A DNA stretch of 64,000 nt from Promethearchaeota archaeon. Its GTDB lineage: Archaea; Asgardarchaeota; Lokiarchaeia; Sigyniarchaeales; SOKP01. The stretch covers positions 135,966 through 199,965 of the forward strand of contig JAUWGH010000006.1 of the NCBI GenBank assembly GCA_030606485.1, given 5' to 3'. Shown one piece after another: positions 1 to 27,395 of this stretch (the stretch's first letter is position 1; every line of letters begins with the position of its first letter). The translations under genes and the position numbers were made by a program. The notes under the pieces are model-generated. The model saw only the letters and a list, made by a program, of their open reading frames with translations, made no database searches and was not told the origin of the DNA.

Positions 1-203
1 ATAAAGTTATTTTAATTGGAATTAGAGTATCTGAAAAGTCAGAATGGTCACAATTGATGGAAGAATTTGATATCAACGAACAGGCGGAGGAAAAAATGAT
101 CTCACTCTTATTCTTTAAAATTGGACAAGAATATCGCTCGGAAATATACGAACAACTTGAAATTATGCTGGATACGATCAAAAATCTTCTTTTTGTTTAT
201 TAA
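1..203 (+). CDS. 3' end of an upstream Roadblock/small-GTPase paralog (partial; start lies outside the window)
   Basis: The frame starting at nt 3 reads ...KVILIGIRVSEKSEWSQLMEEFDINEQAEEKMISLLFFKIGQEYRSEIYEQLEIMLDTIKNLLFVY*, with TAA at 201-203. By manual alignment, about 53 of 66 residues match the C-terminus of the 433..2070 product. Confidence 0.75.
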   Translation, partial: KVILIGIRVSEKSEWSQLMEEFDINEQAEEKMISLLFFKIGQEYRSEIYEQLEIMLDTIKNLLFVY

Positions 204-432
204 TAAAGAAAACATTACAAACAAAAATTATCTTTTATTAGAAATTTTTAATTTAAAAAAATTTTATTTTAAAAATTTGACTTAAAAAATAATCTAAAAA
301 TTTACTCTGTTAACATCAAAATTAAATTTATAAAATATTATAGTAATAGTTAGAAATTTAATTTTTTTAATTATAATAATCTAAATTTAATTTTTATCAA
401 TACTAATTAATTTAAATTTTAGAGGAAATATT

Positions 433-2070
433 TTGCCAATAAATAAAGCTCTACTCTTTACTGAATTGCTGAATAATTTTTTGGAAATTAATAAAGAATT
501 AATAGCTGTAATTGTCTCTGATGAAGACGGATATATTATTGCTGGGGAAAAAAGAAAAGACATTGATATAGAAATAGTCTCTTTTTTAACCGCTGTTGTT
601 AATCCAATATTAGAACGGATTCGTAAAGAATTTACATTTAAAAAGTTTGGGACAGCAAGTTTCGATACCGAAGATAATCGATTACTATTTGTTTCTGTGG
701 ATGAAGCAACAACTTTAAGTTTTGTTTTGGAGCAAATGAGTTCTGTTGATAAGTTAGCGCCTTATGCATATTTTCTAGCTGAAAAGATTGCACAAATTCT
801 TACCGCTGTTGAAGGTGATTTAATACAATTAACTATTCCCAATTTCGAATATGAAGCGGAACTTTCTAAAAGTTCTGACAGATTAAAAAACCAAATTTAC
901 CAGAGTAAATTAGATCACGGGGGGATGTATCGTTTTAAATTTATAATAATTGGGGATCACGAAGTTGGGAAGACCTCAATAATTCGTAGGTTTGTAGAAA
1001 ATAAATTTTTAGCAGATTATCGTACGACCATAGGCCTTAATATTATGTCACATAATTTTGAAGCTTTTGGAAATAAGATTAACTTGTGGCTCTGGGATAT
1101 TGGTGCACAACAATATTTCAAAAGATTTCGAAAAACTTATTATAATGGTGCCCAAGCCGCATTCATCGTTTTTGACTTAACATCTCAAGAAACATTTGAA
1201 AATCTAAAAAATTGGCACAATGAGCTTAAAGAATTCATTGAGAATAAAGATTTACCAATAATAATAGTAGGAAATAAAAATGATTTGACTGAGCAAAGAG
1301 TAATTAGCTATCAAGATGGTGTGAAATTAGCAAGCGATTTATCTGATTTATCAAGTTTATTTGATTCATCTATTTTATCTGAGTTTTCTGATCTATCTGA
1401 TTTATCTGAAGGTATAAAAACTAAGATATCATATATTGAAACAAGTGCATTAACTGGAGATAATGTTGAATACGCTTTTCGGTTAATTTCTTATCATTTT
1501 ATGTTAAAAAGTAAGGAAATAGAAGAAAAAAGATTAAAAAATGCGGTATTGGGTGAAATTGATTCAATTTTAGAGGATCATGATTCTTTAACTCTGTCCT
1601 TTATTACTGAAGATCCATTATGGAGCCCTTGTTTACAGATTTTGGCAGGAATAGGAGAATTAGGGGATTATTTAAAAGTAAAAGATAAAGAGAACGAAAA
1701 AATATTTGAATATTCAAATGGGTTAGTTTTAAAGAATTTTGATTGTGAATCATTTAAAATTTCTGATTCTAATGGCGTCTTTTGTATATTTGATGCGAGA
1801 GAGAAAGAACATATTGAACCAAAATGGAAGGATACAGTAATTAAAATCATTGAAAAAATCAAAAAAAACAGAGTAATTTTAATTGGAATTAGGGTTTCTG
1901 AAGAGACAGAATGGTCACAATTGATGGAAGAATTTGATGTTAGCGAGAAGGCGGAAGAAAAAATGATATCACTCCTGTTCTTTAAAATTGGAGAAGAACA
2001 TCGCTTGGAAATTTACAACCAACTTGAAGTCATGCTGAATACTATTAAAAATCTTCTTTTTAATTATTAA
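433..2070 (+). CDS. Roadblock/LC7 (MglB-like) domain fused to a Ras/Rab-like small GTPase, followed by a ~190-aa C-terminal domain
   Basis: 545-aa ORF with a TTG start preceded by AGAGGA. The N-terminal ~125 aa resemble Roadblock/LC7 (LIAVIVSDEDGYIIAGE...). G-domain motifs are G1 GDHEVGKTS (nt 952-978), G3 WDIGAQ, G4 GNKND and G5 ETSALTG. Confidence 0.85.
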   Translation: MPINKALLFTELLNNFLEINKELIAVIVSDEDGYIIAGEKRKDIDIEIVSFLTAVVNPILERIRKEFTFKKFGTASFDTEDNRLLFVSVDEATTLSFVLEQMSSVDKLAPYAYFLAEKIAQILTAVEGDLIQLTIPNFEYEAELSKSSDRLKNQIYQSKLDHGGMYRFKFIIIGDHEVGKTSIIRRFVENKFLADYRTTIGLNIMSHNFEAFGNKINLWLWDIGAQQYFKRFRKTYYNGAQAAFIVFDLTSQETFENLKNWHNELKEFIENKDLPIIIVGNKNDLTEQRVISYQDGVKLASDLSDLSSLFDSSILSEFSDLSDLSEGIKTKISYIETSALTGDNVEYAFRLISYHFMLKSKEIEEKRLKNAVLGEIDSILEDHDSLTLSFITEDPLWSPCLQILAGIGELGDYLKVKDKENEKIFEYSNGLVLKNFDCESFKISDSNGVFCIFDAREKEHIEPKWKDTVIKIIEKIKKNRVILIGIRVSEETEWSQLMEEFDVSEKAEEKMISLLFFKIGEEHRLEIYNQLEVMLNTIKNLLFNY

Positions 2071-2205
2071 TCACAAATATCTCTGTTATTAAAAAGTAAA
2101 ATTACAAAACCAATAGCAGTAATTCAAAAATCTTTTGATAAATTAACTCAAAAAATGTCTAAAAAATCACCAGACAAAATAAAAAATTGGAAATAAATAA
2201 AATTT

Positions 2206-3615: not shown

Positions 3616-6600
3616 TTGGTTATTTTGAAAAAAAAAAATAGCATAAGTTATAAAAAAATTTTAATTCTATTCAGTTTAATACTTATATTCTCTTTAATTT
3701 TCATTACGCCTGGTATTTACACAAATAAAAATGGATATTTTAATAATCCTACTGATGAAACTAATACTGATGAAATCAATACTGATCTTCAGAATAAAGA
3801 TTTTAGGTCTCAAGGTATAACCTCCGATAATATTTATTCAGGAATTGGGGCTCCTTGGAATCTAACTCATTGGGCTAATCGAACGGATTATGATATCCCA
3901 GTAGATTTTACTAGTCCACTTATACCTAATGATGATGGTAAATGGGGTAGAATGTGTCCGCTTGTAATACAATCTAGTAAGGTTAATAGCGACTTATCGA
4001 ATTTCACTATCCTTTTAACAAATGATACACTTCCATCTGAAATGTTTAATGCAGATGGTCTTTACCCTGCATTAGATGGTGGAGGGGATATTCGTTTTTC
4101 GACCGATCTAAACGGTGACAACCTTCTTCCCTGTGAAATAGTCACATTTACAACTGATAACAACCCTGCTAACGGTAAAGCTGAGATTTGGGTTAAAGTT
4201 CCTTCTATTAGTTCCTCTACCGATACCACCATCTATGTCTGGTATAACAAACTTGGATACAACGAAGCTGCAATGAACCAACCTGCTGCGGATGATATTC
4301 TTGGTTCGGAAGCTGTGTGGTCAAATAACTTTGAGGGCGTTTGGCATTTGAATGAAAGTTCTGGGAGCGCAAAAGACAGTACATCTAATGGATATGATGG
4401 CTCTTTTCAAGGAGATTTACCAGACGCTCAAATTGGACAAATTGGGGAGGGACAAGATCTTGATGGAACCGGCGATTATGTAGATATAGGCGATGCAGGA
4501 ACTGGGATACAGACTATTGAGTTTTGGATGGAATCAGATGATCTTACTGATAGTTTGGATACTGATACTGGTTGGAATATTCCAAGTAATTATGATGATG
4601 ATTATTGGGATTGGGATTATCCAGGTAATGTCTCCACAAATAATAATCAATACGCATCAGAGCCCGATGCTAGTGGTTCACAAGATTGGTATGACTTTAA
4701 TTTTGGTATACCCGGCGGTTCTTCGATCAATGGTATTTGGGTACATATTGAAGCAAATGAAATGGGTGTGGGTACTGCTGGTGCAGACATTGAACTTTCT
4801 TGGAATGGAGGTAATTCTTATACCAGCACAGGTTATGGAGATGACTACTCTGGTTCTGATGTTAATTATTATTATGGTAGTTCATCAGATCTTTGGGGCA
4901 GAGTATCATGGGCTGATACTGAATTAAGCAACGCTAATTTTAGGGTTAGATTAACGAAAAATGGTGTAACAACTCCTAGAGTTGACCTTCTAAGGGTAAG
5001 GGTTTATTATACCATAACCAACGTTAACAGGAAAATAATTGATATAGATGGTACCGACCAGATAGAAATCGACGGAAGTACTGCTGATATACTTGCCACT
5101 AGTTTTCCAGGTACTACAACAATTTATGTAGACGGAGCAGTTGCATCTGGTGTAACAACAAACTGGCATCATGTTGTAATTACTGATACGACCGGAGTCA
5201 ATCCTTCTGATATGGATATTGGTCGAGTTTCATCAAGGTACTTTGACGGTATCATCGATGAGGTCCGGATCTCAGATACTGTAAGAAGTGCCGACTGGAT
5301 TAATTCACTATACAACAATCAAGATGATCCGAGCACCTTTGTTATTAACGGAACTCCAATAGAGGGCGGCATCATCTCAATCTATATTATCGAACAAATA
5401 TCTAATATTGTAGATATGCCTTTAGATCTTGGGTGGCAAGGTAAAAAATTAAACGCTACCATAAAGGACTTGTATGATAAAAGAAATTGGATCAATGGAA
5501 CTTTCCACGCTGGACCTGATGATAATGACCCTTCCTGTCCTGAAAATGATAGTATTTATCTTCAAAATTGGACTTATGGTGAATATGATGTTGTGGGTGA
5601 TTATAGTAATGATATGTCTGGAAATTATTTTGATAGCACAAACGATCCTTCTAACAATGGCAGTGATTGCTTGGAATTAAGAATGGATGGAGATGGTTTT
5701 GGATATGATAAATATGATAGATGTTGGTGGGAGTCGAATTTCACTTTGCCAAGGGGAAAGGTGATTGAGGGTGAAATAAATCTTGTGATATGTCCTTATA
5801 CGCAATATTACGAAACCCGTGAGTTTGGAACGCATTGGAGTGTTCAAGTTATCTTAAATGGTATAGTAATTGATGACAAGAATCTTATATGGTTAGAATA
5901 TAGTGGGGGTGGTGATTGGTATCCCTTGAAATTACAGTTAACGAATTGGTTAGACGATCCAATAGTATTTCCGGATAATGAGAAAAATATGAGCCTTAGG
6001 ATACAATTAATAAGAAATGGACCAACACTTAGTCACGGCCCGTATGGTTCATATCAACAAGTACTTTTTGATGACGTATCATTAATCGTAAAAACAGAGG
6101 TTAAACCTACTCAAATCGGCTTAAAAATGAACCAAACTGCTGTTATAGATACTTCAAATTGGGGTGAAGGCACTGTAGAAATAGATGGTGATTGGAATGG
6201 CACCCAGTTTCCTTTAGTGCACGCTAATTTTAGCAATGATGAGGTCTGGGCATTAGGTGATTATGATATCGATTTTAAAACGAATGTAAATCTTTTTGCG
6301 ACAAAACATACTCCAGAAACTAATTATGAGACAAATGCAGCTTCGTTAGGCACCGGGTTTTCTGTAAGTAATGATAGTTTAGTAAATTGGGAATGTTATG
6401 GGTATACTTCGGTCCCAACGGGATATGCCGAAACAGAAATGAGACTTGAATTTCCAACTGATGTTTATATCACTTGGGTTTCCTATCCTTCAGACCCGCT
6501 TATTAATAAATTAGATTTATGTGATAATTCAACTGCTGGACTTTTAATTGTTAACGTGTCCAAAATATCAGCTACACCAGATGGTTTTTGGAAGTTTGAA

Positions 6601-9600
6601 GCAATATCCCCAAATTATTTTGAGCAATTAAATATATATAACAATGCTACAGGTAGTTGGATCGAAGATAACGAATTTTTAAGTGGAGAATATATAAATA
6701 TTACTGCGAAAATAACGAATAGTCCATTGATATCTGCTTATATTTTGGATACTAAAGCAATTCTCCATGTAAGATTCCCAAATGGCACTATATGGACAGA
6801 AAAAACACAAGAAAAAAACCTTATTTCAAACGGTTTTGTTTATTTTGATTCTTTTCAAATACCTTCCAACATTCCTAATTATAAAGTAGGAGAATATGAT
6901 GCAATAATTTCGTGGAATAATTCTCATTCTATTTATGGGTTAAATGAAACTGGCATAATCTACAAAAAATTTACCGTAATTCACAATTCTACATTAATAC
7001 CTGACCAAAGCTATTACGCAGATATATTTGAAGGCACTTCAATAAATTTAAAAGTTTCATTTAATGATCTTAAAGATGGCAAGGCTATAGAGGGTGCTGT
7101 TGTATATACATATAATTTTACTCATCCTACTATAATACAGAATTTCAGTGAAATTAGTCCAGGTTATTATGTTTTTTTAGATTTTAATGTTAGTGGTGCT
7201 CCACAAGCTGGTGATAATATTATAACAATTTATGCAAATTCTTCTTTATATACGAATAATGAAGTTGATGTAACTATTGAAGTAATAAAAGCAACGACTC
7301 TTACTGTAGATAAGTCAATTTTATCTGTCCAGTGGAATGATAATTTTACAATCCAATTAAACTATACTGAGGAAGTTAGTGGGACAGGTATTGATACTAC
7401 ACCAATAAATAATTGGGTAGGAGAAACCCATACTGTTAGAATCTCTCAAGGAGTATATAACATAACTTGTAATAGTTCCGCATATGAAGTAAATAAACGT
7501 TATAATTTATATGTTGATTTTAATGAAACTGGTTATGAAACACAATCAATAACAACTATAATTGAAATTGTTGAAAGAGAAACATATATCGACGATATTT
7601 TCATAAATGGTAGTGATTGCACGACTAATAAATCTTATAATGTTAAAGCAGGAGAACTTTTGAATCTTACCGTAAAATATAGGGATATTGAAACAGGTGG
7701 GACTTTTATTAATAATGCTCTAGTAAAATTAATAGGAACGGGAATAGAAAAGACTTTTAACGAAAGGATATCATTCCAATACTATAACTTAACTTTAAAT
7801 TCAACAGAATTAGGTGTTGGCGTAAAGTTTTTAACTATTACTGCTCAAAAAGATAATTATACATCTGCTTCAGAATTGTTAACCATAACTGTTTTTGAAA
7901 GAGGAACTAATTATATTTTATATTTGAATGAAACTGATTCTACAAGCGATCCATCTTACCAACTAACTGATAACCAGCTCTTGAATATCACTGTCTCCTA
8001 TATAGATACAATATTGACGGAACATATTAGTGGTGCTACAGTGGATATAAACGGATCAGGAATCTCTAAACAATTTGTTGAGGCTTTCAATAATTATTCT
8101 GTAGAAATAAATTCGACAGATTTAAATCTAGGTGTAAATTTTTTAACTATCTATGCTCAAAAAGAAACTTATGAACCCCAATCAATACTGATTACAATAG
8201 AAGTAATACAAATAGAAACAGAATTAAATCTATATTTAGATGGAGAGGATAAAACAAGTGAACCATCAATTACAAAATATACAAATCAGAGCTTAAATAT
8301 TACAATATCGTATAGAGAGTTCGAAATACCCAATAAACATGTTAGCGGAGCTATAGTGGACATAAATGGATCAGGAATATCTGAGCCTTTATATGAGGCA
8401 TTCAATAATTATTCTGTGCTTATAAATACGACTAAATTAAATCTAGGAGCAAATTTTTTAACAATTTATGCTCGTAAAGATAAGTATGAACCACAAACGA
8501 TTTTACTTTCGATAGAGATAATACAAATAGAAACAAATTTAACATTATATAAAAATGGGATAGATATAACAGCTATACCATCAATTAAACAATACACAAA
8601 TCAAATTCTAAATATTACAGTATCATATAAAGAGGCTACAGGTCCCTACAAACATGTGAGCGGCGCTATAGTTGATATAAATGGATCGGGAATTTCAAAG
8701 GTTTTTAATGAATTAGGAACCAATTATTCAGTTCTTATTGATACTACAAATCTTAATCAAGGAGCAAATTTTCTGACAATTTATGCTCGTAAAGAAAACT
8801 TTGAGCCTCAAACGATTTTACTTACAATAGAGATAATACAAATAGAAACAGACTTAAAGTTATTTTTAAATGGAGTGGATAAAACAAATGAACCTTCTAT
8901 TGACGTAATTACACTTGAAACTTTAAATATCACTATAAAATATACCACTTATGGAACTGGAGTCCATATTAGTAATGCAACAATTGAATTATCTGGAAGT
9001 GGACTTTCGATAAATATAAGTGAAAATCTTGGTTTAAAGCAATATTCATTTATTATTAATACAATAGATTTAAACGTAGGATTTAATTTCTTAACAGTTT
9101 ATGCTCAGAAAAGCAATTATGAAGCTCAAACGATTTTAATCACAATACAGCTAATTGAAAGAAAAGCATATGATGAGATATATTTAGACAATGAAGATAA
9201 AACACTTGAAAAATCAATCGAAACTCCAATAGGTAAGGAGTTAAATATCACTTTTAAATATTTTGACGATATAACAGGAAATCACATTCCTCAAGCACTA
9301 GTACAACTTATAGGAGCAGGACATACTTGGAATTTTACGGAAAATAATTCATTAAAGCAATATTCGCTAATTATAGATACTACAGAATTAGATATTGGAC
9401 TTAAATTTCTAACCATATATGCTCAAAGGACATATTATCAATCTTCTTCAGAGCTTTTAGAGATAACTGTTAGACAAATAAAAACAAATATTACAACAGA
9501 ATCTGGAGAAGATGTAATAAATATACAAGCTGGTGAATCTTATACTCTAAGAATAACTTTACATGATTTAGATTTTGGAAGTATAATAAAGAATGCAACT

Positions 9601-10140
9601 GTTAGATATACATGGGAATTAGGACAAGGTTACCTTACAGATGATGATAATAATGGCATTTTTGAGGTCACATTAGAAAATATACCTGAAGGCACTTTTA
9701 CTATTACTTTCACTATTTTGAATGTAAGTGATGATTATTTATTTGAGCGAAAAACAATAACTCTAAATGTGGTTAGTCCTCCAGAAGAAACTCTAATATT
9801 TCTGATATTAACTATAGTCGCCATTGCTGCCTTTATTAGTGTCACCAGTTATTTCATAGCATATCAAAGAGTATTAAAGTATCCAAAACCTGTTAGAAAA
9901 ATTCATAAATTCAAGAAGACTTTAAAGAAGAAAAAATCTCCTGATGTTGAAATTCTCTCGAGTAAAGTTCTATTAAAAGCCCTCTACAATGAAGAATTAG
10001 ATCCTGTTGCTAAACTTTTTAAAGGGAAGATGAAATATGAACAACCAGAAAAACAACTAGAACTAAAACCATCAAAAGATGAATTAATTGATACTTTATC
10101 CGAAATATCACCTGAAGAATCCGAAAAAAATGAGAAATAA
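3616..10140 (+). CDS. Giant type-I membrane surface protein (DUF2341 + LamG/concanavalin-like + tandem beta-rich repeats)
   Basis: 2174-aa ORF with an N-terminal hydrophobic signal/anchor (ILILFSLILIFSLIFITPGIY). DUF2341-like block: GGGDIRFS...EIWVKVPSISSSTDTTIYVWYN. LamG-like block: WHLNESSGSAKDSTSNGYDG...FDGIIDEVRISDTVRSADWI. C-terminal TM (LIFLILTIVAIAAFISVTSYFIA) followed by a Lys-rich ~95-aa tail. Many N-x-S/T sequons. Confidence 0.85.
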   Translation: MVILKKKNSISYKKILILFSLILIFSLIFITPGIYTNKNGYFNNPTDETNTDEINTDLQNKDFRSQGITSDNIYSGIGAPWNLTHWANRTDYDIPVDFTSPLIPNDDGKWGRMCPLVIQSSKVNSDLSNFTILLTNDTLPSEMFNADGLYPALDGGGDIRFSTDLNGDNLLPCEIVTFTTDNNPANGKAEIWVKVPSISSSTDTTIYVWYNKLGYNEAAMNQPAADDILGSEAVWSNNFEGVWHLNESSGSAKDSTSNGYDGSFQGDLPDAQIGQIGEGQDLDGTGDYVDIGDAGTGIQTIEFWMESDDLTDSLDTDTGWNIPSNYDDDYWDWDYPGNVSTNNNQYASEPDASGSQDWYDFNFGIPGGSSINGIWVHIEANEMGVGTAGADIELSWNGGNSYTSTGYGDDYSGSDVNYYYGSSSDLWGRVSWADTELSNANFRVRLTKNGVTTPRVDLLRVRVYYTITNVNRKIIDIDGTDQIEIDGSTADILATSFPGTTTIYVDGAVASGVTTNWHHVVITDTTGVNPSDMDIGRVSSRYFDGIIDEVRISDTVRSADWINSLYNNQDDPSTFVINGTPIEGGIISIYIIEQISNIVDMPLDLGWQGKKLNATIKDLYDKRNWINGTFHAGPDDNDPSCPENDSIYLQNWTYGEYDVVGDYSNDMSGNYFDSTNDPSNNGSDCLELRMDGDGFGYDKYDRCWWESNFTLPRGKVIEGEINLVICPYTQYYETREFGTHWSVQVILNGIVIDDKNLIWLEYSGGGDWYPLKLQLTNWLDDPIVFPDNEKNMSLRIQLIRNGPTLSHGPYGSYQQVLFDDVSLIVKTEVKPTQIGLKMNQTAVIDTSNWGEGTVEIDGDWNGTQFPLVHANFSNDEVWALGDYDIDFKTNVNLFATKHTPETNYETNAASLGTGFSVSNDSLVNWECYGYTSVPTGYAETEMRLEFPTDVYITWVSYPSDPLINKLDLCDNSTAGLLIVNVSKISATPDGFWKFEAISPNYFEQLNIYNNATGSWIEDNEFLSGEYINITAKITNSPLISAYILDTKAILHVRFPNGTIWTEKTQEKNLISNGFVYFDSFQIPSNIPNYKVGEYDAIISWNNSHSIYGLNETGIIYKKFTVIHNSTLIPDQSYYADIFEGTSINLKVSFNDLKDGKAIEGAVVYTYNFTHPTIIQNFSEISPGYYVFLDFNVSGAPQAGDNIITIYANSSLYTNNEVDVTIEVIKATTLTVDKSILSVQWNDNFTIQLNYTEEVSGTGIDTTPINNWVGETHTVRISQGVYNITCNSSAYEVNKRYNLYVDFNETGYETQSITTIIEIVERETYIDDIFINGSDCTTNKSYNVKAGELLNLTVKYRDIETGGTFINNALVKLIGTGIEKTFNERISFQYYNLTLNSTELGVGVKFLTITAQKDNYTSASELLTITVFERGTNYILYLNETDSTSDPSYQLTDNQLLNITVSYIDTILTEHISGATVDINGSGISKQFVEAFNNYSVEINSTDLNLGVNFLTIYAQKETYEPQSILITIEVIQIETELNLYLDGEDKTSEPSITKYTNQSLNITISYREFEIPNKHVSGAIVDINGSGISEPLYEAFNNYSVLINTTKLNLGANFLTIYARKDKYEPQTILLSIEIIQIETNLTLYKNGIDITAIPSIKQYTNQILNITVSYKEATGPYKHVSGAIVDINGSGISKVFNELGTNYSVLIDTTNLNQGANFLTIYARKENFEPQTILLTIEIIQIETDLKLFLNGVDKTNEPSIDVITLETLNITIKYTTYGTGVHISNATIELSGSGLSINISENLGLKQYSFIINTIDLNVGFNFLTVYAQKSNYEAQTILITIQLIERKAYDEIYLDNEDKTLEKSIETPIGKELNITFKYFDDITGNHIPQALVQLIGAGHTWNFTENNSLKQYSLIIDTTELDIGLKFLTIYAQRTYYQSSSELLEITVRQIKTNITTESGEDVINIQAGESYTLRITLHDLDFGSIIKNATVRYTWELGQGYLTDDDNNGIFEVTLENIPEGTFTITFTILNVSDDYLFERKTITLNVVSPPEETLIFLILTIVAIAAFISVTSYFIAYQRVLKYPKPVRKIHKFKKTLKKKKSPDVEILSSKVLLKALYNEELDPVAKLFKGKMKYEQPEKQLELKPSKDELIDTLSEISPEESEKNEK
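7561..9480 (+). repeat. Six tandem in-frame coding repeats (309-330 nt, ~103-110 aa) inside the giant surface protein
   Basis: Unit boundaries read at about 7561, 7891, 8200, 8515, 8830, 9148 and 9470. Recurring blocks are ...LNITxxY..., HVSGAIVDINGSGIS, NYSVLI.TT.LN.GANFLTIYA.K..YEPQTILL.IE.IQIET. Degenerate flanking copies lie at ~7300-7560 and ~9480-9780. Confidence 0.85.
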
Positions 10141-10378
10141 ATTAAAAAAAAAACTAAAAATTCTTCTTTTTTATAGATTCCCCCTTTTCTTCAGCTGTAT
10201 TTATTCAGCAAGCTTCATTAGTATAAAATATAATATTTTTTCATCTCTATAAATATAAAGAGTGCATAGATTTATCTTAAAGAAAATTTTTAAAAAAAAA
10301 TGAATAAGAAGGGAAATTAAAAATAACCGTTTTTCATATTATATTAATAAATACAATATGATAAAAGAGTAAATTACA

Positions 10379-11143
10379 ATGGATAGTTCTAATCGTAATA
10401 TAATGCCTGGTGCGGGACCTTTTTATTTTGAAGGAAATGATGTAGGAATATTATTACTTCATGGTGGGGGCGGGGGAACCGCAGCCGATTTAAAGCCAAT
10501 GGCAGAATTTTTACATAATGAAGGAAGTTTTACAGTTAGAGTTCCATTGTTATCCGGATTTGGAACAACACCAGAAGAATTAAAAGATACACCGATCTCT
10601 GCTTGGATGGAAGATCTTGAAGTTGAATATAATTTCTTAAAACAAAAAGTAAAAAAGATTGTTGTTGGAGGGCATAGCATGGGAGCAATTTTCAGTTTAT
10701 ATTTAGGTGCTATAAAAAATCCCGATGCAATATTTGCCATAAGTGCTCCTATTGGTATACAGAGATTCTTAAGAAGAATATTGTCAAATATTAAAAATCT
10801 AAAGAGATATTACCCCATTTCCAAAGAAGAATTAGAAAAAGAAACAGATGGAGCATGGGTAGGATATGATAAATTTCCTTTAAAAGCAGGTAGAAGATTA
10901 CTTAAAATAATTAAAACTTTCAAAAAATATTATACTCAAGTTAATTGTCCAACATTATTAATTCAGGGAAGATTGGATAGTGAAGTAAAACCTTCCAGTA
11001 TGGATAAAATCTATGATATGATAAAATCAGAAAAAAAAAAAAAAATTTGGCTTGAAAATAGCGATCATCCCATATTAAAAATTCCTGATGAGGATTTATT
11101 ATTTTCTGAAATTCTAAATTTCCTAAATGAATTTATAGTATAA
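10379..11143 (+). CDS. Alpha/beta-hydrolase (carboxylesterase / monoacylglycerol-lipase-like)
   Basis: Nucleophile elbow GGHSMGA. Candidate triad Asp (GRLDSEV) and His (NSDHPIL). Length (254 aa) and N-terminal LLLHGGGG oxyanion region fit the Est-type esterase family. Confidence 0.75.
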   Translation: MDSSNRNIMPGAGPFYFEGNDVGILLLHGGGGGTAADLKPMAEFLHNEGSFTVRVPLLSGFGTTPEELKDTPISAWMEDLEVEYNFLKQKVKKIVVGGHSMGAIFSLYLGAIKNPDAIFAISAPIGIQRFLRRILSNIKNLKRYYPISKEELEKETDGAWVGYDKFPLKAGRRLLKIIKTFKKYYTQVNCPTLLIQGRLDSEVKPSSMDKIYDMIKSEKKKKIWLENSDHPILKIPDEDLLFSEILNFLNEFIV

Positions 11144-11197
11144 AAATTGAAAGAGTCCTTTTAATAGAGATTTCGCCTATTATCTTTTTTCCCAAAT

Positions 11198-11863
11198 TTA
11201 TTTTTCTATTAAAACAGTATGGATTAAATTTTGATTTAAATCTCTAATACTTTTTAATATTATGTGAGGAACTTGTATATTGTCTATTAATTTTTGTCTT
11301 GATGTCGTTCCCGTTAAAAGCCCAATAAATGGACAACCAAGCATTTCTGCGACCTTAACATCGTTTATATGATCTCCAATAACAATTATTTGCTTATTAG
11401 GAAAAGTTTGTTCTAGTTCCTTTTTTGTAATTGAGTCGTATTTTTTCTTTCTTTGTTCAGTTTCTCCTAAATATAAATCAAAAAAGTGATCTATTTTTAA
11501 AATCTTTAGAATATTATGGACCATTTCATGCTTTTTAGAAGATAAAACTCCTAAGAGAAAACCGTTTTCTTTTAATTCTTTTAATTTTTTCTTTACGCCT
11601 TTAATTAATTTTGACTGATAAATTCCTTTCTTTCCATAAAAGTCACGGAAGGCAGATACATATTTTTCAGCGGATTCATGTGTTATTTCTCTAAACATCT
11701 CGTATAAAGGAGTTCCAATCATTTGCTTTATAATCTTAGAGGAAACTTTCTCTTTTTTGTATTTCTTCAAAGCATAGTTAAAGGAGTTAATAATTCCTTT
11801 AGTGTTTTTAATTAGGGTATTGTCAAGATCAAAACTTAAATATATTTCGCTGGAGTTCATCAA
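11198..11863 (-). CDS. HAD-superfamily hydrolase (phosphoglycolate-phosphatase-like)
   Basis: HAD motif I FDLDNTL, motif II LSSK, motif III/IV K...GDHINDV. Confidence 0.8.
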   Translation of the reverse strand: MMNSSEIYLSFDLDNTLIKNTKGIINSFNYALKKYKKEKVSSKIIKQMIGTPLYEMFREITHESAEKYVSAFRDFYGKKGIYQSKLIKGVKKKLKELKENGFLLGVLSSKKHEMVHNILKILKIDHFFDLYLGETEQRKKKYDSITKKELEQTFPNKQIIVIGDHINDVKVAEMLGCPFIGLLTGTTSRQKLIDNIQVPHIILKSIRDLNQNLIHTVLIEK

Positions 11864-11973: not shown

Positions 11974-12525
11974 TTGGTGAGATTTATTTCTGATAAAGAA
12001 GAAAAAAGTAGAAATAGAAAACGTATAATTGTCTTAATAGTAAGCGGGATATATGTTATTATAATTTTACCAATAATTGGAGTCTTCATATCTTTATACA
12101 TTGATGCTTTCTTTGGTTTTTCAATTTTAATAACCACCCCATTTAATATAATTATTGCAGTAATTTTTTTAGTAGTTGGATTTTTTTGGGCAATCTGGGC
12201 TAATATTGAATTATATAGAATGGGACAGGGAAGTCCAGTTCCATTCAAAGAAACCCAGACAAGAATTCTAGTTATAAGAGGACCTTATGAATATACCAGA
12301 AATCCTATGGTTTTTGGATATATCCTTATCTGGATAGGTATGGGTTTCTTTTTTAACTCTTTATTTCTTACACTTGGATTCACATCAATAATTGTGGTAT
12401 TACTGATTGCATTAGTTAAACTCTGGGAGGAAAAAAATCTCGAAAAACGATTTGGGGAATCGTATGTTGAATATAAAAAGAAAATCTCTTTTATAATTCC
12501 CTTACCACGAAAAAAGCAGAAATAA
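11974..12525 (+). CDS. Isoprenylcysteine carboxyl methyltransferase / phospholipid methyltransferase family membrane protein
   Basis: TTG start, multi-TM. C-terminal signature RGPYEYTRNPMVFGYILIWIG...EEKNLEKRFGESYVEYKKK is typical of the ICMT/PEMT family. Confidence 0.75.
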   Translation: MVRFISDKEEKSRNRKRIIVLIVSGIYVIIILPIIGVFISLYIDAFFGFSILITTPFNIIIAVIFLVVGFFWAIWANIELYRMGQGSPVPFKETQTRILVIRGPYEYTRNPMVFGYILIWIGMGFFFNSLFLTLGFTSIIVVLLIALVKLWEEKNLEKRFGESYVEYKKKISFIIPLPRKKQK

Positions 12526-19956: not shown

Positions 19957-20607
19957 ATGATGATAAAAATGATACCTCAAATTATATCTGCAATTTTCTT
20001 ATCCGTCCCATTAATTATACTAATAAGTTCCAGTATTCCCTATTGGGCAAGATTTAAAAATATGGATAAATCACCCAAAAAAATACAGTATAAAAAAAAA
20101 TTTCTTTTTTTAATTGCGATAGGTTGGTTATCTATATGGCCAGTTTGGATTGGAAGCGTTATTCTTCTATTTTTAAATAATTTTTATAACATCTTTGGAT
20201 TTTTAACATTTTCTTCACAATTTGAAGTTATACAACAAATTATTGGATTCTTTATTTTTTATATTGGAGATATTACATATAATTTAACTATCATTTTAAC
20301 CGGTCAATATTTATCGCCTTCAACATCTGGACTAGTAGAGGACCACAAATTAATCCAAAAAGGTACATTTAGAATAATAAGACATCCTCTATATGTCAGT
20401 TATTTATTGATTTTGGTGGGATTAAGTTTAATTCTTCTTATCTATTGGCTATTAATTCCTACTATTTTTGTAATTATTGGAATCTATCCAACAGCAAAAA
20501 CAGAAGAGGAGACTTTAATACAACAATACGGAGAGGAATATATTGAATATAAAAGGAAAGTTGGTATGTTTTTTCCTAAGCTTAGGAAATCAAAATCTTA
20601 TAGATAA
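19957..20607 (+). CDS. Second ICMT/PEMT-family membrane methyltransferase
   Basis: Multi-TM. FRIIRHPLYVSYLLILVG...EEETLIQQYGEEYIEYKRKV parallels the motif in 11974..12525. Confidence 0.75.
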   Translation: MMIKMIPQIISAIFLSVPLIILISSSIPYWARFKNMDKSPKKIQYKKKFLFLIAIGWLSIWPVWIGSVILLFLNNFYNIFGFLTFSSQFEVIQQIIGFFIFYIGDITYNLTIILTGQYLSPSTSGLVEDHKLIQKGTFRIIRHPLYVSYLLILVGLSLILLIYWLLIPTIFVIIGIYPTAKTEEETLIQQYGEEYIEYKRKVGMFFPKLRKSKSYR

Positions 20608-22323: not shown

Positions 22324-22734
22324 TTACGTTAAATAACTTGATAAAAAATTTTTAAATGCTTCTTTAACATCTCTTGTGATATGATGTTCAATTTCACAAG
22401 ATATTTTTTCCACAAGAGGTTTATCATCAATTTTTAATACTTTTCCAAAAAAAACATTCAATAACGCTTCAATTTCTATTAATTGGTTCGCGACTTGTTT
22501 CCCTTTTTTGGTTAATCTTATCGCTTTTCTAGGTGTCCAATTAATTAAATTTCTTTTTTTTAGTTTGTGTAACATTTCAGATATACTGGGAGGCTCAACT
22601 TCTAAACTTTCTGCAACTTCCTTATTCGTAGCCCACCCTCCCCTTTTTTTTCGAGAAACTTGATAGATTCTCTTTAAATACATTTGATAACTTTCTGGAA
22701 AATCTGAAATTTGGATTTCTTTTTCCTTACTCAT
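22324..22734 (-). CDS. DtxR/MntR-family metal-dependent transcriptional repressor (two-domain form)
   Basis: YLKRIYQVS...ATNKEVAESLEVEPPSISEMLHKLKKRNLI...LTKKGKQVANQLIE...CEIEHHI (wHTH plus dimerisation/metal helix). Confidence 0.8.
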   Translation of the reverse strand: MSKEKEIQISDFPESYQMYLKRIYQVSRKKRGGWATNKEVAESLEVEPPSISEMLHKLKKRNLINWTPRKAIRLTKKGKQVANQLIEIEALLNVFFGKVLKIDDKPLVEKISCEIEHHITRDVKEAFKNFLSSYLT

Positions 22735-23339
22735 ATAAACTCTATATTTTTTTTATAATTCAAATAAACTTTTTTTAAATTCTTCTACTAGAAAAATATT
22801 AATCTAAGATATTTAAAGATTTTAAATAATTTTCTACCATCTTTATTTAAGATATAATATTTTTTCCATATTCCCATTAAATTTTTTCTCTTCTACCTTC
22901 ACCTATAAAAGGAAAGTAATAAAATACTAAATCAGAAAGAAATATGCGAATATTATTAATTATAGTATGTAATTTAATGAATAAATATTATTAATAATTA
23001 TTCTATAATATATTTTATTTATTGGATTGGATAAATCTTATTTTTATCAGACTAATTTACTATTATATTTATGTAATCCGAAATATTTATATATGAAAAT
23101 TAATGATTTCATTATAAAATAAAAAATTAGCTAAACCTAAATTCAAATTTCTTTTCTTATAAAAATAATTATATATAAAAATAAACATTCTAATAAATCA
23201 AAGATAGAGATAAATAAAAATAAAATTTATGAGCAAATTCATAATTTGGGATTCAATCTGAAAATTTAAATATAATTGAATGAAAAAATTATTAAATGAA
23301 TTAAAAAATAAGCTAAATAAAAGTTAAAGGAATTCAAAA

Positions 23340-23975
23340 ATGTCTAATCACGTTAGAAAGCAAAAAGAACCAAAAACAATTGTAAAAGAGAATATTTTGC
23401 GAGTAATGTTGGAAGAGCCATCAAGATCAAAAGAGATTGGAAAAGTGCGTGAATTATCTAAGGAATTTATCATTCTTGGATCATGGCAAATAGATCTTGA
23501 TGTATATTTTATGGAGGTATTAGATGATCTCCAAGTGGCTGGATTGCTTACTATTAATCAAAATCAAGTTTCAATCACTAAAGATGGACTGATTGAAGCA
23601 GCAAATATTTTATCAAAACATCAAGCAATTGAGAAATTCTTCATGAAAGATCTAGACAAGAATGAAGCCCATATAGCAGCAGGCATTCTAGAACACTTTA
23701 TTTCAAAAGAAGTACTTGAGAATATGAATCGGATAAGATCCCTTGAAGAAAACGGTATTGAATTAATTAATTTCACCTCTGATGAGGGAATTATAACTGC
23801 GCTAATAATTGATGACACACAATTATTTGAGAGAATGGTCAGTATGGGTATTTGTCCGGGTGAAAGGATAAAAATTATTGCAAAAGTAGCTGCTGGTTTT
23901 ATTGTAAAATTAAAGCACACACAGATTGCAATTGATAATTCATTATGTAATAAAATTCTGGTCGCGATGATATGA
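23340..23975 (+). CDS. DtxR-like regulator with C-terminal FeoA/SH3-like domain
   Basis: The central HQAIEKFFMKDL...EAHIAAGILEHFIS resembles the DtxR dimerisation domain. The C-terminal MGICPGERIKIIAKVAAGFIVKLKHTQIAID is FeoA-like. Its stop overlaps the feoB start by 4 nt. Confidence 0.65.
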   Translation: MSNHVRKQKEPKTIVKENILRVMLEEPSRSKEIGKVRELSKEFIILGSWQIDLDVYFMEVLDDLQVAGLLTINQNQVSITKDGLIEAANILSKHQAIEKFFMKDLDKNEAHIAAGILEHFISKEVLENMNRIRSLEENGIELINFTSDEGIITALIIDDTQLFERMVSMGICPGERIKIIAKVAAGFIVKLKHTQIAIDNSLCNKILVAMI

Positions 23976-26041
23976 CTAAACGCAATATACTAGAATCAGA
24001 TCAACAATGGCAAAAGGATCAAAATATTGACCATGTTGAGAAAATCAAAAAAAAGATAAAATTTGATTTTAAAATAGATAGAGCCCCAAAAAAAGATAAA
24101 ATAAAAATAACATTTATCGGACAACCAAATGTTGGTAAAAGTTCTTTATTAAATGCTTTAGTAGGAACGAAAATTGAGGTCTCCAATTATCCTGGAACTT
24201 CTGTTGAAATCACCCAAGCAGAAAAGATAATGAAGGTTTTCAGCAAAGATAAACGAGAAATTAGTAAAATAAAATATATTTTCATAGATACACCTGGAAT
24301 ATATTCTATTTCAGATCGAAGTCCTGAAGAAACAATAACAAAGAGGGCAATTTTTTCATCAAAAGAAAATGATATTATAATATTGATTGCTGATGTCAAT
24401 GCGCTTGAAAGGAGTCTCTATTTTGCTTTGCAAATTTTAGAATCTGGAAAAAATCTAATATTAGGTCTTAACTTTGTGGAAGATGCATATAAGAAAGGGA
24501 TTAGTGTCAATATTACGAAATTAAGTCAAATTTTAGGTGTTCCAGCAGTTAGATTCAACCCTATTACCAAGAATATTAAAGATTTACTTATTACCGCAAC
24601 AAAAAGGTCAAATAATATTTCCGCAGAAAACTTTAATGTTAAATATGATGATCATATTGAAAGATTGATTAAATATGCTTCAGAAATAATAAAAAGCGAT
24701 CTCCCACCAAGATTTATTGGCGTTAGGCTATTAGAAGAAGACCCAGATTTCTTAGAACTTATCTCAAATGAACAATTACAGAAATTAAAAGAGGAAAAAA
24801 AAGAAATTGCTTCCGAACACCCAAATATAAAAGAAGAAATATCAAAAACTCGTTTTGGGACTGCAGCCTATATTGCAGAGAAATCAACTCATATCGTAAA
24901 GATCGAAAAGGAATTTAAAAAGAAACAACCAATCATGGATCGAGTTTTATTTCATAGGTTTTGGGGGCCTATATTTACTTTATTTTTCTTTTTAGGTTTG
25001 TTCTTCGTATTACTTATTGTCGGAGGTGAAATTGAAGAATTACTTGTTTTACTTGGAGATTTTGTTATAGAATTAATACCTGAAGATGAGTGGGCTATAG
25101 GAGATTTTTCGTTCCTTAATCTTTTGCGTGAGGGTTTAGCTGGGGGTTTTGCGGGGATTGCAATCGCACTACCTTACGTCCTTTTATTCTATCTTATATT
25201 AGGCTTTACTGAGGATATTGGACTGTTGCCAAGATTTGTTGTAAATATTGAAAAAATCTTCAGTTTCTTTGGGCTTCCTTCTAAAAGCTTTATTACTATG
25301 ATTTTAGGTGTAGGTTGTACTGTTCCTGCAATAACTTCAACTAGGATTATCCCTCAAAAGAGTGATAGACTTAAGACTGCATGCTTGTTTGCATTTATTC
25401 CTTGCTCATCACGAATTGGAATTATAATGGGTGTAGTGGGGTTCTATGGAGGATTCATTATTGCATTAGCAACTTTCGGAACCATTTTCATTGCTATGAT
25501 GATTTGGGCATTTATAATGAAGCGGATAATGAAGGCGAAGCCAGATCCAATGTTAATTGAACTTCCAGCCTATAGAAGACCTATAATCAATAATGTATTT
25601 TCAAAAAGCTGGCTTAGAATGAAAAGTTTCATATATGTAGTCATCCCTCTCCTTATAGGAGGCGGAATCATTTACTCAATATTAGATCAATTAGGAATTA
25701 CTGCGTTAATAATTGAACCATTTAGACCTTTTATGGAAATTGTTTTCAACCTACCTGGGGAAACAATTGTTCCACTTGTTTTTGGCTTTGTCCAGAAAGA
25801 TTTAACCGGAGCAATGCTTTTATCTGTTTTTGAAATCGAAGATGGTCTACTTCCTCTCACAAATATACAACTCTACACTTTTGGTCTCGCTTCATGTATT
25901 GGAGTTCCATGTATAATTGCACTTGGTACAATGTTCAAGGAATACGGATTGAAAAATAGTCTCATAACTCTATTTTCTATGATTCTATACGGAACTTTCA
26001 TTTCGAATATTGCCTGGAGAGTTGCAATATTATTCATATAA
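23972..26041 (+). CDS. feoB: Ferrous iron transporter FeoB
   Basis: N-terminal G-domain ITFIGQPNVGKSSLLNAL, DTPG and a polytopic C-terminal permease. 689 aa. Confidence 0.9.
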   Translation: MTKRNILESDQQWQKDQNIDHVEKIKKKIKFDFKIDRAPKKDKIKITFIGQPNVGKSSLLNALVGTKIEVSNYPGTSVEITQAEKIMKVFSKDKREISKIKYIFIDTPGIYSISDRSPEETITKRAIFSSKENDIIILIADVNALERSLYFALQILESGKNLILGLNFVEDAYKKGISVNITKLSQILGVPAVRFNPITKNIKDLLITATKRSNNISAENFNVKYDDHIERLIKYASEIIKSDLPPRFIGVRLLEEDPDFLELISNEQLQKLKEEKKEIASEHPNIKEEISKTRFGTAAYIAEKSTHIVKIEKEFKKKQPIMDRVLFHRFWGPIFTLFFFLGLFFVLLIVGGEIEELLVLLGDFVIELIPEDEWAIGDFSFLNLLREGLAGGFAGIAIALPYVLLFYLILGFTEDIGLLPRFVVNIEKIFSFFGLPSKSFITMILGVGCTVPAITSTRIIPQKSDRLKTACLFAFIPCSSRIGIIMGVVGFYGGFIIALATFGTIFIAMMIWAFIMKRIMKAKPDPMLIELPAYRRPIINNVFSKSWLRMKSFIYVVIPLLIGGGIIYSILDQLGITALIIEPFRPFMEIVFNLPGETIVPLVFGFVQKDLTGAMLLSVFEIEDGLLPLTNIQLYTFGLASCIGVPCIIALGTMFKEYGLKNSLITLFSMILYGTFISNIAWRVAILFI

Positions 26042-26612
26042 TTTTTTTTATTTCGTTTAAATTTAATCAACAAATATACATCTTTTTTTTTATAGGATTA
26101 ATCTGAGTAATTCGTATTTTAGAAGGTCAAATTAAAGAAATTCATAATATTTAATTATTTTTTAGAATATTTTCTCCCATTTTCTTTTTAAATTATTTCA
26201 AAAAAATTTATTAATAAGTTAGTTATTTACTAATTAGGTATGTCTAAATATAAGATCAAAATTTTAAAAAAAAAGTCAGATGGATATATTGAATTCTTTT
26301 AAATTAACTTATTGATAATTAATAAAGAATTAATTGATATAAAATCATTATATAATAAATCTTTTATTTTCCAGTGGTTGTTAAAACATTTAATAAAAAA
26401 ATTGGAAAATACTTACTTTATCAAGATTTTATGTAATAATTGTGATATGAGAAAATATAAATGGTGTATTGGGCATTGTGCGGTTCATAAAGGTAATCTC
26501 ACCAATGTCTTTGGTAATGTATTGGGTCTCTCTAATAAAGGGAGACATGCATTATAAAAAGCACATATTAAAATTTCAAAAAAAAAAATATAAGAAAAAA
26601 AGGTATTCTAAC

Positions 26613-27395
26613 ATGTTAGAAATTAAAAATTTGCATGTAAAAATTGAAAGTAAAGAGATATTACATGGTATAAACCTCACTATACCTGATGGTGAAGTAC
26701 ATGCTTTATTGGGATCAAATGGTTCTGGTAAAACTACCCTCATGATGACAATCATGGGTTACCCAGAGTATGAAGTAACAAAAGGAGAAATAATTATTAA
26801 TGGTAACGATATTTTAGATCTGGATATTACTGAGAGAGCGAAATTAGGTATAGGTATTTCTCAACAAAAGCCACCAACAATTAAAGGAGTAAAATTAAGG
26901 CAGATATTGGATTTTTTTATCGAATCCAATTCAAAAAGGAAAGAATATATTGATATTATGGTTGAGAAATTCAATATGGATAAGTTCTTAGATAGGGATA
27001 TTAACTCTGGCCTTTCATGTGGTGAAATAAAGCGATCAGAGTTATTTCAAGTTATGGTATCTCTTCCGAAATTTTTAATGTTGGATGAACCAGATTCAGG
27101 TATTGACCCCGAGCAGCTTGCAATAATTGGTGGTGTAATTAATGAATGTCTTAGGATCAAAGACCACCGAGGGCCAACCATAAAGCGAAATACAAGCTTA
27201 ATTATTACTCATTTAGGTAATATTCTAGATTATGTACATGTAGATTGCGCCCACCTACTACTTGATGGTTCAATACGTTGTAATGGTAATGCGATGATTA
27301 TGCTGAATCAAATAAAGAAAGCGGGGTATGAATACTGTATACGTTGCCAAAAATTGACTCAAGATAATTTTGAGAAGGAGGAATTAAAATGTTAA
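26613..27395 (+). CDS. sufC: Fe-S cluster assembly ATPase SufC
   Basis: The ATG at 26613 gives MLEIKNLHVKI.... Walker A GSNGSGKTT, signature LSCGEIKRSE, Walker B LMLDEPDSGID, H-loop ITH. The ORF-track start at 26469 adds an implausible N-terminal extension. Confidence 0.85.
   Translation: MLEIKNLHVKIESKEILHGINLTIPDGEVHALLGSNGSGKTTLMMTIMGYPEYEVTKGEIIINGNDILDLDITERAKLGIGISQQKPPTIKGVKLRQILDFFIESNSKRKEYIDIMVEKFNMDKFLDRDINSGLSCGEIKRSELFQVMVSLPKFLMLDEPDSGIDPEQLAIIGGVINECLRIKDHRGPTIKRNTSLIITHLGNILDYVHVDCAHLLLDGSIRCNGNAMIMLNQIKKAGYEYCIRCQKLTQDNFEKEELKC

Follow-up and report, generated by a model that had tools for sequence, protein, structure and literature searches.

The stretch of DNA analysed here, referred to as the window, covers 64,000 nucleotides (nt) of the forward strand of a Promethearchaeota archaeon genome (assembly GCA_030606485.1, contig JAUWGH010000006.1, positions 135,966 to 199,965) and has a G+C content of ~28-30% throughout. 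At its start lie the 3' end of one gene and, downstream of it on the same strand, a complete paralogue that opens with a TTG codon. The complete gene encodes a 545-amino-acid (aa) protein, which is the subject of this analysis (Table 1). When the entire protein was scanned with Pfam and NCBIfam, the central G domain was the only domain detected. A first-pass annotation of the window had proposed, from sequence pattern, that this small GTPase domain is preceded by a Roadblock domain and followed by a G-like domain. From an alignment of 77 family sequences (A2), we extracted alignments of single domains (A3 and A4), and the two domains that are invisible to Pfam were modelled separately using AlphaFold2 (AF2). 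Structure prediction and Foldseek searches with the separate domains bore out the proposed layout, and based on these models we are confident that the protein consists of a Roadblock domain, a G domain, and a G-fold domain. A C-terminal prenylation Cys/CAAX or other lipidation motif was not found in the protein, which ends in ...IKNLLFNY.

Table 1 Features of the three-domain GTPase gene and its immediate surroundings. Positions are those of the window; aa numbers refer to the 545-aa protein unless stated otherwise.
Feature	Position	Strand	Evidence or remarks
3' end of upstream paralogue, type C'	3..203	+	66 codons and stop; complete gene of 542 aa in near-identical contigs
Conserved 5' region	271..432	+	Duplicated with the gene; TATA-like TTTATAAAATATTATA, GAGG just before TTG
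Complete type-C gene	433..2070	+	545 aa; Roadblock, Rab-like GTPase, predicted pseudoGTPase; >100 full-length homologues at 57-97% identity
Roadblock/LC7 (MglB-like) domain, aa 1-125	433..807	+	AF2 model, Foldseek, Pfam matches of family members
Conserved linker, aa 126-164	808..924	+	Invariant P136 and Y156, near-invariant R150 and K152; AF2 confidence low
Ras-superfamily (Rab-like) G domain, aa 165-356	925..1500	+	Pfam and PDB sequence matches
G1 P-loop GDHEVGKT, aa 174-181	952..975	+	Read from sequence; kept in all paralogue groups
G3/switch II DIGAQ, aa 222-226	1096..1110	+	Ras Gly60-equivalent is Ala225; catalytic Q226 retained
G4 NKND, aa 281-284	1273..1284	+	Read from sequence
Ser/Asp/Leu-rich low-complexity insert SDLSDLSSLFDSSILSEFSDLSDLSEG, aa 304-330	1342..1422	+	Between G4 and G5; translation, length classes
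Long helix, aa 357-383	1501..1581	+	KSKE-EE motif, E362/E364 invariant; leads into β1 of the C-terminal domain; residues 2-28 of the C-terminal domain model
Predicted pseudoGTPase (G-fold) domain, aa 384-545	1582..2067	+	AF2, Foldseek, profile, hhalign, motif table
Convergent neighbour, 415 aa	2206..3453	-	Found by tblastn in 14 related loci, downstream of the type-C gene

The central domain is a Rab-like GTPase with an alanine in switch II

The central domain matched the Pfam family Ras over aa 169-352 with an E-value of 4.7e-42 and 143.8 bits as compared to a cut-off of 21.6 bits; further matches were to Roc (6e-30), Arf (9e-15), and Gtr1_RagA (4.5e-5, 23.4 bits) in Pfam and to TIGR00231 small_GTP (2e-20) in NCBIfam. 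The closest PDB sequences were Rab35, Rab14, a Thorarchaeota Rab, Rab8, Rab11, and Rab1, with E-values of ~1e-29. On the basis of these scores, we assign the domain as a clear Ras-superfamily homologue, in agreement with its earlier description as a small GTPase and despite a change in the G3 motif. The first-pass annotation had described the motifs G1 to G5 as all readable. This holds for G1, G2, G4, and G5, which are canonical: GDHEVGKTS (G1, aa 174-182), YRTTIG (G2), GNKND (G4), and ETSAL (G5) are kept in all paralogue groups, and in G2 the switch-I residue T199 is invariant, as is R197 two residues ahead of it. It does not hold for G3, which reads WDIGAQ with an invariant Ala at the position of Ras Gly60, the glycine that senses the γ-phosphate through its amide, as given by gapless alignment to DTAGQ of Ras. 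Specifically, D222, G224, A225, and Q226 are invariant in the 77 aligned homologues; WDxGAQ is found in the paralogue groups A, B, and C described below, and distant family members have WDxGGQ or WDxGSQ in the style of switch II in Arf and Rag proteins. Ras G60A and G-alpha G226A allow GTP binding and hamper the switch-II transition and hydrolysis and, because of this behaviour, the invariant Ala225 suggests by analogy that the switch is slow or partner-dependent. The least conserved part of the G domain is the insert between G4 and G5; because this insert is longest in type C, the type-C protein has a length of 545 aa as compared to 517-528 aa for types A and B.

The N-terminal domain is predicted to adopt a Roadblock fold

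The AF2 model of the N-terminal domain, which has a predicted local distance difference test (pLDDT) score of 65.9, shows the fold order α-β-β-α-β-β-β-α, i.e. the Roadblock order, with helices at residues 5-19, 47-66, and 105-123 and strands at residues 23-30, 35-40, 74-78, 82-88, and 93-100 as assigned by DSSP. A Foldseek search against PDB returned 126 matches at E≤1e-3. MglB was at the top (1j3w/3t12, E 2e-7, target template modelling (TM) score 0.77), with a match that takes in the C-terminal helix of MglB, and the other leading matches were MK-D1 Roadblock3 (9jue), a Thorarchaeota Roadblock protein, MglC, and LAMTOR subunits. When the profile of the domain was compared with PDB sequences, the top match and the sole near-significant one was the Roadblock/LC7 protein 7yh1 (E 0.23, in register). 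Among 22 family members scanned singly, 15 matched Pfam Robl_LC7 (PF03259) weakly, with 5e-4 as the best E-value and none reaching the gathering level, and seven matched MAPKK1_Int, which likewise belongs to the Roadblock superfamily; the 545-aa window protein itself had no Robl_LC7 match at E≤10. Thus, fold order, structural matches to MglB, Roadblock, and LAMTOR proteins, and the weak Robl_LC7 matches of family members together corroborate the proposed N-terminal Roadblock domain, and a complete lack of matches to Roadblock/LC7 profiles, which had been named in advance as evidence to the contrary, was not observed. Invariant residues of the domain include S29, D30, G33, E47, S50, T53, P58, R62, R64, G73, D78, and R83 and, towards its end, P110, E117, K118, and Q121.

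The C-terminal domain is a predicted pseudoGTPase

The AF2 model of the C-terminal ~190 aa has a pLDDT of 90.4 and a predicted TM score (pTM) of 0.87, and its elements follow each other in the order long helix, β1-α1-β2-β3-(extra strand)-β4-α3-β5-α4-β6-α5. The long helix comes right after the final G-domain helix, and we suggest that the two are continuous and that the long helix would act as a rigid connector. Foldseek found 104 PDB matches for this model at E≤1e-3, led by Arf, Arl, Sar, Rab, and Ras proteins. Small GTPases account for 46 of the 50 best matches and for all of the best 36 (E 3e-6 to 2e-4, TM 0.39-0.60), and GDP forms of Arf-family proteins, including the Asgard HodArfR1, come first (E 3e-6, TM 0.55-0.60). 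Moreover, the family profile of the domain matched Rnd1/Rho6 among PDB sequences (E 8e-4) in register over β4-α3-β5, such that DGVFCIFDAR...KVILIGIRVS of the domain pairs with DAVLLCFD...RVLLIGCKTD of Rnd1/Rho6. The first-pass annotation had claimed a G-like fold for this part of the protein; the model together with the structural and profile matches substantiates this claim, and AF2 and Foldseek did not point to a non-G fold for the C-terminal 190 aa.

We considered that the domain could instead be a generic three-layer α/β domain of the flavodoxin-like kind, in which case its likeness to G domains would be convergent and not due to descent from a GTPase. The TM scores of the first matches are moderate, sequence identity is 8-15%, a few flavodoxin-like proteins are present among the Foldseek matches at E ~2e-4 (FprA, 3k1y), and no single C-domain sequence matched a GTPase family in Pfam. 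However, the 36 best structural matches are without exception small GTPases, the only significant PDB sequences for the profile are Rnd1/Rho6, with Rnd3 and Arf1 next, and in hhalign the same segment aligned in register with the protein's own G domain at E 0.009 as compared to 0.07 and 0.29 for control domain pairs. We consider convergence highly improbable on these grounds. The hhalign comparison also lends weak support to an origin of the C-terminal domain by internal duplication of the G domain, which is plausible.

In agreement with the claim that P-loop, NKxD, and DxxG are absent, GxxxxGK[ST], DxxG, and NKxD were not found in the C-terminal domain of any paralogue group or distant member. 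In the window protein, β1 is followed by TEDPLWSPCLQ, without GK[ST], and LIGIRVSEE stands at the place of NKxD; the residues that are conserved at the places of G motifs are W/P after β1, FDAR after β4, LIGIRVS, and W494. Based on the model and these motifs, we suggest that the domain is a pseudoGTPase that has lost all nucleotide-binding motifs and would be unable to bind nucleotide in the canonical way. One could argue that it still binds nucleotide or another ligand in a non-canonical pocket made of the W/P loop, FDAR, and the Arg of LIGIRVS, and that the protein is a two-site NTPase like EngA/Der or Miro, because P399, F453, D454, R456, R487, and W494 are invariant or nearly so and lie at the G1, β4, and G4 places, and because some proteins classed as pseudoGTPases retain nucleotide binding. 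Against this, no Gly-rich loop, Lys/Ser-Thr pair after β1, or base-recognition Asp of the NKxD type is present in 128 family members or in distant members, and a profile search among 1.84 billion cluster representatives found no relative of the domain with a P-loop; accordingly, we regard a ligand-binding C-terminal domain as improbable. Of note, this search retrieved just 46 cluster representatives, among which the complete ones share the three-domain architecture; the remaining matches are mostly fragments, and a weak match to a protein of 3519 aa is probably spurious.

The family is conserved in Asgard archaea and comprises three old paralogue types

In a whole-database search, the full-length relatives had lengths of 516-553 aa and came from metagenome-assembled genomes (MAGs) labelled as Promethearchaeota/Lokiarchaeota, Thor-, Hod-, and Hermodarchaeota; the window protein is 57-60% identical to homologues from Loki-, Thor-, Hod-, and Hermodarchaeota-labelled MAGs. 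Among GTDB species-representative genomes, we found 196 matching stretches and kept 80 loci for counts. All of these loci are from Asgard MAGs or unclassified 'uncultured archaeon' bins, bar one contig binned as Nanopelagicaceae. The latter (L068, DATKTW010000108.1), titled 'Candidatus Nanopelagicaceae bacterium', carries an Asgard A-B pair of the kind described below with a small GTPase gene in between and is most likely a mis-binned Asgard contig. The Asgard origin suggested at first pass is upheld by these loci, and the family, which evolves slowly, is restricted to Asgard archaea. Across 128 family members, mean pairwise identity is 65% for the Roadblock domain, 65-77% for the G domain, and 52% for the pseudoGTPase domain; all three domains are strongly constrained.

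The 128 family genes, from 81 loci, cluster into three old types that are 50-59% identical to each other, i.e. type A (~521-528 aa), type B (~517-521 aa), and type C (545 aa), to which the window gene belongs. In 45 of the 80 loci, a type-A gene is followed by a type-B gene on the same strand and in this fixed order with a spacing of 80-570 nt, mostly 100-200 nt (for example at 8001-11294 of locus L026, with an A protein of ~528 aa and a B protein of ~519 aa, and in L050, L067, and L047). A C-type pair is present in three loci, and adjacent paralogue pairs of any type in 48. Type C is usually single, and in 14 loci it lies between a gene of 704-735 aa and a gene of 415 aa. An A-B pair and a C gene can also co-occur in one genome, in L008 and L080 even on one contig.

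The 415-aa neighbour, which is convergent with the window gene, is highly conserved (58-90% identity, 80% mean column identity). Pfam gave no match above noise for it, only a faint winged helix-turn-helix (wHTH)-like one at aa 170-201, and the profile comparison with PDB gave nothing significant, the best match being a coiled-coil at E 0.046. The possibility that this protein corresponds to the DENN-like partner of another Asgard Rab operon was considered and dismissed, as nothing supports it. The A-B pair, in turn, has a divergent neighbour in 59 loci that encodes a 193-aa RING-H2 and TPR protein (e.g. L026 7234-7815, minus strand) with a match to Pfam zf-RING_2 at 2.5e-7. A TPR array of ~340 aa is appended to the C-terminus in some type-C relatives, giving an 894-aa form (P0019; also L004 and L005). 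A 'Rosetta stone' link between these fused variants and the RING-TPR neighbour was retained as no more than a weak hint: the similarity is of a generic TPR kind (best segment 38% over 50 aa).

The window pair is a maintained, lineage-specific duplication

The partial upstream gene encodes 66 residues of which 53 (80%) are identical to aa 480-545 of the complete protein (BLASTP 2e-34; 86% identity at the DNA level), and the hand count in the first-pass annotation was thus exact. The complete upstream paralogue is present in locus L082 (NCBI GCA_023128565.1), the DNA of which is 98.8% identical to window positions 1-1653, and its 542-aa product ends in the very same 66 residues. An exact match to the window protein was absent from the assembly collection, and the close relatives P0001 and P0010 took its place in the analysis. 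In L001, L002, L081, and L082, a 735-aa gene on the minus strand is followed by the 542-aa paralogue and the 545-aa gene. Wherever the sequence is long enough, which is the case for L001, L002, and the window, the minus-strand gene of 415 aa comes next. The postulated tandem array stands in so far as a second complete copy exists; its extent, checked upstream on these four related contigs, is exactly two genes.

The 542-aa and 545-aa copies are ~78% identical with a ratio of nonsynonymous to synonymous divergence (dN/dS) of 0.22, and the motifs of the upstream copy are intact in L082 and L001; both copies are maintained under purifying selection. Because synonymous divergence (dS) is 0.54 between the copies as compared to 0.16-0.21 between orthologues, the genomes concerned diverged only after the duplication. 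It represents a lineage-specific event in a family with an older and widely conserved A-B tandem. An ortholog locus that is 92% identical (L003, JAHLWH010000208.1, 1-4004) is without the upstream paralogue even though the duplication came before the genomes diverged; this lineage has lost the copy or moved it elsewhere. Taken by itself, this locus, together with the fact that just 201 nt of the copy lie inside the window, could be read to mean that there is no meaningful pair and that the second copy reflects faulty assembly or a duplicate in decay. We deem this exceedingly improbable given that the two-gene arrangement is present in four independent assemblies (from JGI, ENA, and NCBI) with complete ORFs and intact motifs, and given the divergence values just described.

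The first-pass annotation had also stated that similarity between the copies continues briefly past the stop codon. This was not substantiated: identity after the stop is 35-43% over 20-100 nt and, thus, not above the 39% expected by chance from the A+T-rich composition. Instead, DNA similarity between the paralogues extends from ~160 nt ahead of the respective start codon to the stop codon (blastn, window 271 to 2071). In an alignment of six sequences that includes both paralogues, L082, L081, and L001, the 5' region has 83% mean column identity, i.e. it is conserved more than a dS of 0.54 would predict, and it is a probable promoter and leader. An RNA element in this region was rejected based on an RNAalifold energy of -5.5 kcal/mol, essentially no covariation, and no Rfam match.

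Comparison with known GTPase systems

Roadblock-GTPase fusions are already known in Asgard archaea (Klinger et al. 2016, as cited in PMC4917890). The AF2 catalogue of MK-D1 by Tran et al. 2024 (PMC10933270) includes 'RG' architectures, and AF2 predicts there that an operon-encoded pair of MK-D1 Rag-like GTPases heterodimerises through the Roadblock domains. The family resembles such fusions in having an N-terminal Roadblock domain and a Ras/Rab-like G domain, in its occurrence in Lokiarchaeia-type genomes, in a Roadblock domain recognised via AF2, and in being without lipidation motifs; it differs from them by the conserved G-fold third domain without nucleotide motifs, the invariant DxGAQ, and the old paralogues arranged as adjacent pairs. 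In the literature searched, coverage of which was partial, we found no mention of a G-fold third domain, a DxGAQ switch II, or the A-B pairing, and the supplement of Tran et al. 2024 (PMC10933270) has no 'RGX' label. We regard the three-domain family as a variant of the known Asgard multidomain GTPases with a third domain and a conserved pairing that we did not find described, a statement that reflects absence of evidence.

As in the Rag/Gtr proteins (RagA/B-RagC/D, Gtr1-Gtr2), the G domain is covalently joined to a Roadblock domain, there are paralogous partners, and dimerisation is proposed here to occur through the Roadblock domains; in addition, there is the weak Gtr1_RagA match, and distant family members have the Arf/Rag-style WDxGGQ. 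However, the Roadblock domain is N-terminal in the family and C-terminal in Rag proteins, an extra pseudoGTPase domain is present, the G domain scores 143.8 bits with Ras as compared to 23.4 with Gtr1_RagA on the same residues and has Rabs as the best PDB sequences, and no Ragulator, TOR, or lysosome context was seen. Membership of Rag/Gtr thus fails on domain order and G-domain family. With the bacterial MglA-MglB system (with MglC), the family shares a Roadblock platform combined with a small Ras-like GTPase, and MglB is the best structural match of the N-terminal domain. Nevertheless, MglA and MglB are separate polypeptides in bacteria as opposed to one chain here, and there are no motility genes nearby. 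Moreover, G3 of MglA reads TxxGQ, and an intrinsic Arg in its switch I immediately precedes the Thr of G2 (features taken in part from the supplement of Tran et al., PMC10933270), whereas the family has DxGAQ and Arg197 at T-2; membership of MglA fails because G3 is DIGAQ and because of the position of this Arg. By analogy, the family plausibly works like the Rag and MglAB systems, though it is a member of neither.

The ROCO (Roc-COR) proteins are also multidomain GTPases with a C-terminal domain after the G domain, and the G domain of the window protein matches Pfam Roc at 6e-30, but its C-terminal domain is one of 160-190 aa with a predicted G fold and not a COR domain. ROCO membership was rejected, as there was no COR match in Pfam and no Roco structure among the top Foldseek matches. 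As for the C-terminal domain, pseudoGTPase domains with a Ras-like fold and degenerate G motifs that serve as structural or interaction modules include pG1/pG2 of p190RhoGAP, CENP-M, and the dynein light intermediate chain, and p190RhoGAP has one real G domain and pseudoGTPase domains in one chain. The window protein is similar to p190RhoGAP in combining a real G domain and a predicted pseudoGTPase. It is different from all three in that there is no detectable sequence relationship, in being archaeal, and in that a single long helix joins the domain to an active G domain.

A hypothetical model for a dimeric switch on a Roadblock platform

Roadblock domains characteristically work as dimers on which a small GTPase is mounted, examples being MglB2-MglA, Ragulator/Rag, and the C-terminal domains of Rag proteins. 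Because MglB, the LAMTORs, and the Rag C-terminal domains behave as dimers or platforms, we propose by analogy, and on balance consider it probable, that the family forms a dimeric Rag/MglAB-like switch on a Roadblock platform with the pseudoGTPase domain as a scaffold. In this model, the Roadblock domains would dimerise to create a two-GTPase unit, which would be a homodimer in the case of a single gene and a heterodimer in the case of adjacent paralogues, i.e. C'-C in the window and A-B in most other Asgard genomes. Such a unit would amount to a Rag-like switch of two GTPases in which the domain order is reversed. The attached G domain would hydrolyse GTP or exchange nucleotide under the control of the Roadblock platform and, owing to the Gly-to-Ala replacement in switch II, would switch slowly or only with the help of a partner. 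Unable to cycle, the pseudoGTPase domain on its long helix would provide a fixed surface for effector docking or scaffolding, or would act as a pseudo-partner for the active G domain. Because the protein has no CAAX or other lipidation motif, any recruitment to a membrane or target would occur via partner proteins. We infer Roadblock dimerisation, the action of the Roadblock domain on the G domain in cis or in trans, and the role of the pseudoGTPase domain by analogy to these systems; that the proteins work as paralogue pairs is hinted at most strongly by the A-then-B adjacency, which is seen in 45 of the 80 loci.

The main rival to such a dimeric platform is a monomeric, self-regulated switch, in which the Roadblock domain folds back in cis on its own G domain as an element similar to a GTPase-activating protein or a guanine nucleotide exchange factor and in which the tandem paralogues are independent with diverged targets. 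This would agree with the conserved 40-aa linker between the Roadblock and G domains, with the many single-gene loci, and with the conserved 5' region that each window copy has of its own, and Tran et al. (PMC10933270) wrote of one predicted homodimer that it "is not predicted to exist". Conversely, the best structural matches of the N-terminal domain, i.e. MglB, LAMTOR, and the Rag C-terminal domains, are known Roadblock/LC7 domains that are dimeric, MglB binds MglA as a 2:1 platform, and the fixed A-then-B adjacency in 45 loci is hard to square with unrelated switches. We consider a monomeric switch rather unlikely.

Several findings nonetheless weigh against a dimeric switch with a pseudoGTPase scaffold. 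The confidence of the N-terminal domain model is moderate, with a pLDDT of 66 and three of five models below 50. At the sequence level, the C-terminal domain is linked to G domains only weakly, with E-values of 8e-4 and 0.009, and the TM scores reach only 0.55-0.60. Furthermore, each window copy keeps its own conserved 5' region, and the two window genes may be transcribed separately and not as an operon. Finally, just one gene, of type A, B, or C, is present in some lineages and, therefore, heterodimerisation cannot be obligatory for the family. We also entertain, as a tentative and by our estimate doubtful extension of the dimeric switch, that the family represents an ancient Asgard-only switch made of obligate Roadblock heterodimers (A-B, C'-C) with pseudoGTPase domains as effector docks and with TPR and RING (ubiquitin-type) outputs. 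It is equally speculative that such obligate heterodimers would be a prokaryotic counterpart of the Rag heterodimer plus its Ragulator platform in one polypeptide pair.

Ideas on Asgard forerunners of eukaryotic membrane and signalling systems revolve around small GTPases that have Roadblock or longin partners, and the mode of action is known for almost none of these archaeal proteins. The family described here is suited for experiments because it evolves slowly, is present in many genomes, and combines a regulator, a switch, and a predicted dead switch in one chain, often as a fixed gene pair. If the proteins form a heterodimer through their Roadblock domains, then two-GTPase logic of the Rag kind would have existed before eukaryotes, with the domains arranged in another order. 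We know of no earlier archaeal pseudoGTPase domain, and the C-terminal domain would in that case also be the first example. If the proteins are monomeric self-regulated switches, they would constitute one more multidomain Asgard GTPase family.

Other genes in the window

An ORF of 2174 aa (3616-10140, plus strand) has an N-terminal signal-like segment, DUF2341, Big_1, and a C-terminal hydrophobic anchor, and at least six tandem modules of ~95 aa are visible in its translation. Its product is probably a cell-surface protein, and its 5' part (4-6 kb) has a G+C content of 38.6% as compared to ~28%. Two ORFs on the plus strand (11974-12525 and 19957-20607) belong to the PEMT/ICMT family of membrane methyltransferases, and the second also matched ICMT at 1e-6. 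ICMT processes prenylated GTPases in eukaryotes; because the GTPase analysed here has no CAAX motif, no link between these ORFs and the GTPase is implied. A Ribonuclease III domain, which is uncommon in archaea, is encoded at 38921-39607 on the plus strand (Pfam 2e-12). Finally, an iron-related cluster at 22324-28606 consists of a DtxR-type repressor, a FeoA-fused repressor-like ORF, and FeoB, followed by an ABC ATPase and a SufBD-like gene.

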